Assembly (NCBI RefSeq): GCF_058153355.1
Contig: NZ_CM177019.1
Length of the DNA stretch: 64,000 nucleotides
Strand: one strand, 5' to 3'
The notes under the pieces were generated by a model, which was not told where the DNA came from, did not search any database, and saw only the letters and a program-made list of their open reading frames with translations. This document shows, in pieces, positions 63,227 through 64,000 of this stretch; within the stretch, counting starts at the first letter, position 1, and each line of letters starts with the position of its first letter. The translations under genes and the position numbers were made by a program.

Positions 63227-63733
63227 TTATTCTGAAGGTGGGTTGCTTGCGTACTTCTCGTAGAAGTCGTAAAGCTGCTTGAGTCGCATTTCGAAAGCCA
63301 AAAGCATGTTTTTGGCCTCAACTGGAGGAAACTGTCGAAAAGTATTAATCAGGCGTTTTTCATCTTCGCTTAACTCAGTAAATTCATCTGCGCTACTGCC
63401 GATAGATTTTTGCACCCCTAACAAACCTGCAGGGGAAGCAGGAGTCTTCTCTGTTGATGAACCATATTCCAGCCACGCAGGCTCAACACCTAGAAGTTCT
63501 GCTATTCGTTCAAGTTTTTCGTCGCGTGGTTTAGCAGTACCTAACGTATAGCGCCGCGCCATTTCGTAAGTAACACCCGAAGACAAACTTAAGTCTTTGA
63601 TAGATATTTTTTTCCTATCCATTTCAGACTTTAGTCTTGTCGCGAATGCGTGATGTTTATGTGTGTTTTCTACCATGTATAGAAGATTAAAGTAGTTGTC
63701 CTGTTTCGTCATTTCTATTTTACGTAGTTGCAA
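63227..63733 (-). CDS. HTH (XRE-family) regulator, putative prophage repressor; start uncertain
   Basis: Helix-turn-helix segment SIKDLSLSSGVTYEMARRY; divergent from the cro-like gene; no S24 peptidase domain seen. Confidence 0.55.
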   Translation of the reverse strand: MQLRKIEMTKQDNYFNLLYMVENTHKHHAFATRLKSEMDRKKISIKDLSLSSGVTYEMARRYTLGTAKPRDEKLERIAELLGVEPAWLEYGSSTEKTPASPAGLLGVQKSIGSSADEFTELSEDEKRLINTFRQFPPVEAKNMLLAFEMRLKQLYDFYEKYASNPPSE

Positions 63734-63783
63734 ATTCTACTTTGTGTAGTATTATAGTGTTGTTCTTGAAATGGAGTTAACGA

Positions 63784-64000
63784 TGAGTACGACACACAAA
63801 AACATCACAGAAAAGGCGGTTATGGCCATTGGCTCTCCATCTGCTGTAAGCCGCATGTTTGGTTTCAGATCGCCTCAATCCATTTTTAACTGGATTATTC
63901 GAAATAGAGTACCAAGCGAAAGGGTTATTAGGCTTTGTGAATTGGGAGGGTGGGTTGTTACTCCTCATGATCTTCGTCCTGATTTACATCCTACTCCAAT
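63784..64000 (+). CDS. Cro/YdaS-like DNA-binding protein (partial, runs off window)
   Basis: ATG at 63784; product MSTTHKNITEKAVMAIGSPSAVSRMFGF...VTPHDLRPDL resembles YdaS/Cro-like regulators. Confidence 0.5.

Follow-up and report, generated by a model that had tools for sequence, protein, structure and literature searches.

GfoR, GtgR and GfhR, the repressors of Gifsy-1, Gifsy-2 and Gifsy-3, are dimeric proteins of ~136-150 aa that lack a cleavage domain. They are not cleaved, and are inactivated by small LexA-controlled antirepressors encoded outside the immunity region; DicA and RacR have been named as members of the same class (PMC3121763). In the cryptic prophage Qin, the antirepressor Rem causes a 165-fold derepression of DicA, which forms with DicC a recA-independent bistable switch that can be flipped by heat and urea (PMC10448788). 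PaaR2, YdaS and YdaT act as CI, Cro and CII, and the mRNAs of both paaR2 of CP-933P and lambda cI have been shown experimentally to be leaderless (PMC8630535).

Here, we analyzed the immunity region found at the end of a window of 64,000 nucleotides (the whole stretch of DNA under study, from contig NZ_CM177019.1 of the RefSeq assembly GCF_058153355.1). The immunity switch at this locus is well conserved and of a known class, and represents a rare variant in sequence. We estimate at roughly 80% the probability that the whole mechanism proposed below is correct, i.e., that this is the lysis/lysogeny switch of a lambdoid mosaic prophage of the Rac/Qin type, governed by a short non-cleavable repressor of the DicA/GfoR class. 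Prophages with non-self-cleaving repressors form a growing class, of which this one is a well-resolved example, complete with predicted operators, promoters, leaderless start and terminator.

The prophage and its divergent gene pair

The immunity region forms the inner end of a lambdoid prophage that starts near 53.4 kb, where it adjoins yebY and sdsR/ryeA. The minus strand of the prophage encodes an integrase, an excisionase, an AAA_24 protein, Gam, an exonuclease VIII-like protein, a Rha-domain protein, and ydfC-, ydfB- and ydfA-like genes. We also observed an IS110-family transposase inside the prophage, which may be defective given this element. The genes at the edge of the window, with the terminator of the repressor gene, are:

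63227..63676, minus strand: repressor gene (149 aa, stop included in the coordinates), with an HTH, a linker and a two-helix C-terminal module
63180..63202, minus strand: intrinsic terminator of the repressor gene, CCCGGC-ACA-GCCGGG followed by T8
63783..64000, plus strand: YdaS-family Cro-like gene, first 72 of ~94 codons, running off the end of the window

The first-pass annotation had recognized from the sequence an HTH protein on the minus strand facing a Cro/YdaS-like protein on the plus strand, and domain searches bear out both identities. The YdaS-like gene starts at ATG 63783 (one nucleotide before the start that had been assumed, 63784), with the Shine-Dalgarno sequence GGAG at 63773-63776. 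Its 72 residues match PF15943 (YdaS) with E=3.6e-7 and 30.4 bits, just above the cut-off of 30 although the protein is truncated, as well as phrog_35 (E=3.6e-14), and they are 33% identical to the YdaS of K-12. A comparison with DicC found no relation between the two proteins. The terminator hairpin of the repressor gene is maintained in relatives by compensatory changes, e.g., CCCAGC/GCTGGG and CCTGCC/GGCAGG.

A short repressor with a helical C-terminal module

The longest open reading frame (ORF) of the repressor spans 63227..63733 on the minus strand (168 aa, TTG start). The N-terminal region of the protein matches the Pfam family HTH_3 (E=3.8e-8), with an additional match to HTH_26, and the Foldseek superposition on 434 Cro and P22 c2 (rmsd ~1 Å, TM(target) 0.87-0.89) identifies it as a 434-Cro/P22-c2-like HTH. 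The repressor has the HTH of the lambda-type CI/LexA-like class without its S24 domain: we found no match to PF00717 (S24) at E<=0.1 and no S24 peptidase in any of the domain libraries searched, as the first-pass annotation had supposed. Only ~55 residues follow the linker, and these are modelled as two helices. In the AF2 model, five helices form the HTH domain and two more make up the C-terminus, all predicted with confidence, and the linker between them is disordered. In the numbering of the 168-aa ORF, from which 19 must be subtracted to obtain that of the 149-aa protein, the helices are at 25-90 and 123-162, and the linker (94-113) has pLDDT <50.

The C-terminal module is a helical segment of ~50 aa (pLDDT ~90) that has no fold analogue in the PDB according to Foldseek and is covered by no Pfam family. 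Since it takes the place of the S24 peptidase, the repressor would not cleave itself on RecA filaments. An AF2 model of a construct joining two copies of the module (CTD-linker-CTD) has pTM 0.61, with helices at pLDDT >90. Searches with a profile of the module gave only 54 clusters at 50% identity among 1.84 billion representatives. It is always C-terminal, in full-length proteins of ~115-210 aa (the shorter entries are apparently fragments), and an Xre/CI-type HTH was present in 8 of the 10 sampled proteins that carry it.

The alignment of 38 homologues of the repressor shows three parts. The recognition region, TYEMARRYT.G.AKPR, is invariant in its recognition-helix residues TYEMARRYT. The linker varies in both length and sequence. 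The C-terminal block, EF..LSEDEKRL.R.FR.FP..EA.NMLLAFE.RYKQL.DFY, is conserved.

Proposed start codon and promoter of the repressor

The ~50 bp initially placed between the two genes (63734..63783) apply to the longest ORF only. The most likely start of the repressor, we propose, is ATG 63676 and not TTG 63733, and the gap is then ~106 bp. The features involved are the following:

63677..63733, minus strand: initial 19 codons of the longest ORF, most probably untranslated, which carry PRM and OR2
63684..63712, minus strand: predicted PRM, with the -35-like ATGACG (63712-63707), a 17-nt spacer and the -10-like TAATCT (63689-63684)
63728..63755, plus strand: PR, TTGCAA-16-TATTAT in a promoter scan, with OR1 filling the spacer

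The alternative is a longer repressor of 161-168 aa, initiated at ATG 63712 or TTG 63733, with operators in a gap of 50-70 bp and OR3 and OR2 within coding sequence. The frame is indeed open up to 63733, conservation extends to ATG 63712, and 161-168 aa is the length given in most database entries; in E. coli, Enterobacter and Klebsiella no stop interrupts the 161-aa ORF, which is the one chosen by most gene callers. However, in Salmonella (L014) and Cronobacter (L016) homologues an in-frame TAG/TAA lies between the equivalents of ATG 63712 and ATG 63676. Relatives bearing an S24 domain align only from the second Met, residues 1-17 of the 168-aa ORF are predicted to be disordered (AF2 pLDDT <50), and neither of the two ATGs is preceded by a Shine-Dalgarno sequence. 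The conservation of the DNA also speaks against the longer protein. In an alignment of nine lineages, an invariant AAAATAGAAATGA block, composed of an OR2 half-site and the -35-like ATGAC, is followed by a 17-nt spacer, a TAATCT/TACTCT hexamer, seven bases of an OR3 half-site, and the ATG. The 17 nt between the invariant hexamers are hypervariable in sequence and never vary in length, with no gap in any of the nine lineages. The apparent conservation of the residues 'LNLLP' is explained by the DNA that encodes them, the -10 hexamer together with the OR3 half-site. Judging from the sequence, this pattern upstream of ATG 63676 is the signature of a promoter and not of codons. In-frame stops, promoter-like conservation, disorder and the alignment of the S24-bearing relatives thus point to ATG 63676, and we regard the longer repressor as unlikely. 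Gene models of 161-168 aa, which are common, are probably misleading.

With the first 19 codons of the ORF assigned to promoter and operators, the control region left untranslated is likely to cover 63677..63782, i.e., ~106 bp and not ~50. The hexamers of the predicted PRM are weak (4/6 and 3/6 consensus matches), and 7 nt separate the -10-like hexamer from ATG 63676. From this arrangement we infer that transcription starts at the start codon and that the repressor mRNA is leaderless. Another promoter on the minus strand, TTAACT-18-TATAAT (63780..63751), fits the consensus. Its -10 mirrors that of PR and relatives do not conserve its -35; it was rejected as PRM in favour of the conserved element ATGACN-17-TAATCT.

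Predicted operators and the early-left promoter

Operator repeats, expected between divergent genes of an immunity region, were found as predicted 15-bp sites of the form TCTAC-N5-GTAGA. There are six of them, three at PR/PRM and three at PL, a second promoter situated just past the terminator of the repressor gene:

63736-63750: OR1 (predicted), TCTACTTTGTGTAGT, within the PR spacer
63714-63728: OR2, TCTATTTTACGTAGT, separated by 1 bp from the PRM -35 and overlapping the first base of the PR -35
63669-63683: OR3, TCTACCATGTATAGA (plus strand), centred on the start codon and lying over the predicted +1 of PRM
63102-63116: OL1 (predicted), within the PL spacer
63123-63137: OL2 (predicted), overlapping the edge of the PL -35
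63154-63168: OL3 (predicted), upstream of PL
63097..63168, minus strand: PL region, with -35 TTGACA (63124-63119) and -10 TATTAT (63102-63097)
63096-63025, minus strand: PL leader, conserved from E. coli to Cronobacter
63024-62869, minus strand: first early-left gene, ydfA-like (DUF1391, E=2.6e-29)

PL (TTGACA-16-TATTAT) has 11/12 consensus matches in the promoter scan, and PR has the same design, with the operator O1 inside the promoter spacer. Sites with at most two mismatches to TCTAC-N5-GTAGA are not enriched in the 64-kb window as a whole (14 against 13 expected), and half of them (7/14) cluster within 63123-63750. Relative to the start codon, the OR sites keep the exact positions -74, -52 and -7 in seven lineages of five genera (Escherichia, Enterobacter, Klebsiella, Salmonella and Cronobacter). 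The zones used for these positions were picked post hoc, which makes P values indicative only, and the real evidence is the positional identity across lineages. Of the 8 lineages checked, 6 have OR3 as a perfect palindrome at -7, and the window and L020 have it with one mismatch. Between close relatives the half-sites are kept and the central 5 bp vary. The layout at PL recurs in the relatives with a short repressor and also, with a different spacing, in L020. Hence, in their positions, clustering and conservation across genera, the predicted sites are those of a tripartite operator.

We propose the following mechanism. The 149-aa repressor would be expressed from the weak PRM, probably on a leaderless mRNA ending at its own terminator, and would bind, probably as a dimer, to the 15-bp sites. 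Occupancy of OR1 and OR2 would shut off PR, and with it the YdaS-type Cro, then YdaT and the replication genes beyond the window. Occupancy of OL1-OL3 would shut off PL, and with it the ydfA/B/C-like genes, the Rha gene and the exonuclease. The position of OR2, abutting the PRM -35, would suit self-activation, and that of OR3, over the PRM start site and the start codon, would suit self-limitation and a shut-off mediated by Cro.

Distribution and conservation of the locus

Relatives are rare: one was found in only 8 of 5,426 genomes. The closest complete E. coli genomes are only ~82-85% identical over the immunity region, and a search of sequenced phages revealed no full-length repressor in deposited phage genomes. 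The best protein match (P0001, 92% identity) has the same gene core, in which the repressor is opposed to YdaS, YdaT and replication genes, and so do the more distant homologues in Enterobacter, Klebsiella and Cronobacter (53-59% identity), in mosaic flanks. In all the examined relatives where neighbouring genes are called (8 lineages), the repressor faces a YdaS-like gene. This common layout and the operators at PR/PRM and PL uphold the interpretation of the divergent pair as an immunity region. In Salmonella (L014, L015) no gene is called between the repressor and the replication genes. The YdaS-like gene is followed by a gene in the position of cII and then, where the locus reaches far enough, by replication genes. 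The gene in the cII position is YdaT in the lineages with a short repressor, and Phage_CP76 in L018 and L020. On the repressor's side, the relatives have the early-left operon. For example, the homologue in E. coli STEC383 faces a 94-aa YdaS-like gene, then YdaT, a DnaT-like gene and P, and has on its other side DUF1391, ydfB, dicB, an exonuclease, xis and int. L001 has the full 94-aa homologue of the YdaS-like protein, followed by YdaT, a DnaT-like gene and P.

The HTH is also found, with 52-59% identity, in proteins of ~240 aa from Yersinia, Serratia, Erwinia, Citrobacter and Enterobacter ludwigii, where it is followed by an S24 peptidase; the divergence from our repressor begins right after the HTH. 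The one such locus that we examined, in E. ludwigii, has a YdaS-type partner, a similar set of operators and the same promoter layout. These relatives, together with the IS110 insertion in the prophage, could suggest that a lambda-type cI has decayed here, a truncation having removed its S24 domain and left a functionless C-terminus and a non-inducible prophage. Yet, the C-terminal 50 aa are conserved in >35 sequence clusters and at least five genera, with near-invariant positions, and are confidently helical; DicA and other small HTH regulators have them too, and a conserved terminator directly follows the gene. We therefore consider decay very improbable. Less probable still is that the pair forms a toxin-antitoxin-like module instead of a phage switch, with YdaS as the toxin and the HTH protein as the antitoxin. 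This idea draws on the Pfam name of PF15943, 'YdaS_toxin', and on early reports that called YdaS and YdaT toxins (PMC5700377, PMC5700373). However, the two genes are divergent and do not form an operon, operator-like sites also occur ~600 bp away on a second promoter that drives early-left phage genes, and later work assigned YdaS and YdaT as the equivalents of Cro and CII, not toxins (PMC8630535, PMC11879457, PMC5917428). The label 'YdaS toxin' is probably misleading here.

Comparison with known switches

The repressor has 149 aa with an HTH and no cleavage domain, and its homology to DicA is detectable, as in the short non-cleavable class. The profile of the family aligns with K-12 DicA over the HTH and the C-terminal helices (hhalign probability 95.8%, E=6.9e-9), a remote relationship in pairwise terms (24% identity, E=0.095). 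The NCBIfam model of DicA, NF007257, matches across residues 19-146 with 34.3 bits, far below its cut-off of 101, so that we speak of a DicA-like architecture and not of a DicA orthologue. A kinship with RacR was discarded, as the family profile does not align to that protein.

The organization of Qin is similar: a short HTH repressor without S24, on the same strand, lies just upstream of the early-left operon ydfA-ydfB-ydfC, the C-terminal two-helix modules are homologous, and the leader upstream of ydfA is shared. The two systems differ in their operators, which are TTAGC-type palindromes in Qin and TCTAC-N5-GTAGA in the window, and in the Cro partner, DicC in Qin and an unrelated YdaS-type protein here. 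Qin also has Rem, whereas tblastn found no Rem homologue in the window or in the 10-kb flanks of the relatives. In the PaaR2 system of CP-933P and the RacR system of Rac, as in the window, a short divergent repressor faces YdaS, with YdaT upstream of the replication genes. The gene paaR2 is leaderless, its intergenic region is ~97 bp long (~106 bp in the window), and PL is also controlled (PMC8630535, PMC11879457). The published operator consensus of CP-933P consists of GTTTAGTAA repeats, in contrast to TCTAC-N5-GTAGA. Unlike in the PaaR2 and RacR systems, the repressor gene of the window is followed by a terminator and not by toxin-antitoxin genes. The likeness to GfoR, GtgR and GfhR is drawn from their published description, i.e., from their size and the lack of a cleavage domain.

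The switches of lambda, 434 and P22 share with the window the tripartite OR and OL, where O1 and O2 lie on the lytic promoters, O2 borders the PRM -35 and O3 lies on PRM, as well as the 434/P22-type HTH fold and, probably, the leaderless repressor mRNA. The window differs from them in the lack of S24, and thus presumably of RecA-stimulated self-cleavage, in the YdaS family of its Cro, and in the spacing of the operators (22 and 45 bp, versus ~24 and 23 bp).

Routes of induction

The first-pass annotation had deduced from the missing S24 domain that induction does not involve autocleavage. This agrees with published work on the class (PMC3121763, PMC10448788). Derepression would most likely proceed through an antirepressor protein, or through a stochastic or stress-driven flip of a bistable repressor/Cro switch. 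A candidate antirepressor module is present on the minus strand of the prophage:

60635..61467, minus strand: candidate module as a whole, with the isrK promoter, isrK RNA, C4-type RNA and a Rha-domain, AnrP-like ORF
61467-61439, minus strand: isrK promoter (promoter scan)
61432-61356, minus strand: isrK RNA (Rfam isrK, 60.2 bits), with its own promoter and terminator
61331-61244, minus strand: C4-type RNA (Rfam C4, 72.8 bits)

The Rha-domain ORF matches Phage_pRha (E=1.8e-31) and anti-repressor PHROGs. It can be annotated as an 'Ash+Rha' fusion of 282 aa, where the label 'Ash' is probably misleading. Gifsy-1 has an antirepressor-like module, isrK-orf45-anrP, with an orf45-anrP fusion in Shigella dysenteriae, and the isrK/C4-Rha layout of the window reproduces it, including a fusion of the Shigella type (PMC4825925). 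The AnrP-like gene (~61189-60635), under control of isrK/C4, is a candidate inducer judging by these likenesses. It is only a candidate and not an obligatory partner, because most relatives carrying the repressor lack it. Two other candidates were discarded. A weak phrog_340 match had raised the idea of a Rem-like C-terminus in Rha or in the ORF6N antirepressor of the relatives; the profile comparison gave ~1% and pairwise BLAST was non-significant. The ORF6N 'anti-repressor' itself, encoded downstream of Q in the relatives, has no LexA box and looks like part of a late operon.

An alternative to both isrK/C4-Rha and stochastic switching is that induction depends on the SOS response, through a small LexA-controlled antirepressor encoded beyond 64000, as in Gifsy. 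This is the published mechanism for the class (PMC3121763), and relatives in Enterobacter (L008-L010) and Klebsiella (L013) have near-consensus LexA boxes downstream of their replication genes, as the Gifsy phages do, with the Klebsiella box adjacent to dinI. On the other hand, we found no LexA box in the prophage part of the window, the closest E. coli relatives also have none within 10 kb, and the switching of DicA is recA-independent (PMC10448788). We consider this route possible rather than probable. A bolder scenario, which we rate as unlikely, builds on the finding that the same HTH and very similar operators occur with either an S24 or a DicA-type module. Phages would swap their induction trigger by replacing the C-terminus of the repressor alone, probably keeping their immunity specificity, and the trigger here would be the AnrP-like Rha gated by isrK/C4 and expressed from its own promoter. 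If this were true, induction would be independent of SOS and controlled by a small-RNA switch. Whichever route applies to the proposed short-repressor switch, the related HTHs and similar operators fused to S24 or to the DicA-type module form a natural matched pair, and a testbed for the exchange of induction routes at unchanged immunity.

On the host side, the switch would control early-left genes (ydfABC); genes of this kind are known for their effects on cell division and phage resistance. The PL leader folds weakly, without compensatory changes, and matches no Rfam family; its 3' two-thirds are also conserved in Qin, upstream of ydfA. Finally, we observed a weak DicF-like RNA signal among the early-left genes.

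Early-left region and predicted repressor operators

In the Qin prophage of E. coli K-12, a TTAGC-type operator-like palindrome adjoins the start codon of dicA within the dicC-dicA intergenic region (2352-2437 of the Qin locus, L002; …TTAGCATTAGCTAACTATG), and dicA in this respect resembles the repressor gene of the window, which also has an operator-like site at its start codon. The Qin palindrome is a hint that the placement of an operator over the start codon, together with leaderless expression, may be general for this class of repressors.

The features of the early-left region are the following.

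63025-63096, minus strand: leader of the predicted early-left promoter PL, with a counterpart in Qin (L002, 2930-3008)
61938-62384, plus strand: ECs_2282-family zinc-ribbon gene, 148 aa (phrog_1244)
61467-61439, minus strand: isrK's own promoter
61378-61361, minus strand: isrK's own terminator
61356-61432, minus strand: isrK RNA (Rfam match)
61244-61331, minus strand: C4 antisense RNA (Rfam match)
60635-61483, minus strand: 'Ash+Rha' ORF, 282 aa

The 5' third of the 'Ash+Rha' ORF contains both Rfam-matched RNAs, isrK and C4 (61244-61432), and its Phage_ASH portion therefore probably represents RNA genes read as if they were coding sequence. The isrK/C4/Rha module has the same layout as isrK-orf45-anrP of Gifsy-1 and c4-icd-ant of P1. 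The segment upstream of isrK (61521-61691, minus strand), at the position occupied by dicF in Qin, matches STnc100 (34 bits) and DicF (22 bits), in both cases below threshold.

Conservation of the PL leader, whose pattern is …GGTGCGACAGG…GTTCCGCC.CCCGGCG.TAAGGG…, extends from E. coli to Cronobacter; upstream of ydfA in Qin, the part from GTTCCGC onward, which makes up its 3' two-thirds, is conserved as well. The leader folds only weakly, shows no covariation and has no match in Rfam; its role may be nut-like or translational. The ECs_2282-family gene, which points opposite to the PL operon, looks like a moron inserted in this region.

LexA boxes

Near-consensus LexA boxes precede a 107-aa 'UmuD-like' gene (phrog_3469) and a 55-aa gene in the Enterobacter relatives (L008, 5974-5993), and dinI in one Klebsiella relative (L013, 3597-3616). 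Each could be an SOS-controlled antirepressor unit serving this family of repressors. In the window's chromosomal portion, two tandem LexA-box matches occur at 22088-22131 (CTGTGTTTTTATACAG and CTGTATGGATAAACAG), and a third at 45631-45646 (CTGTATAAAATCACAG); they probably mark host SOS genes.

Apparent attachment site and integrity of the prophage

The remaining features concern the prophage's int/xis end and its integrity.

53163-53308: overlapping SraC/RyeA and SdsR/RyeB sRNA genes
53436-54512: prophage integrase
54870-55048, plus strand: RalA antitoxin sRNA (203.9 bits)
56575-57750, plus strand: IS110-family transposase (DEDD_Tnp_IS110 and Transposase_20)

The two overlapping sRNA genes directly adjoin the integrase, and this locus, beside yebY, seems to be the attachment site. 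The IS110-family transposase is inserted between the prophage Gam and exonuclease genes, and the prophage carrying it may be a defective element. Close to the int/xis end lies RalA, the antitoxin sRNA of the RalR/RalA type I toxin-antitoxin system.
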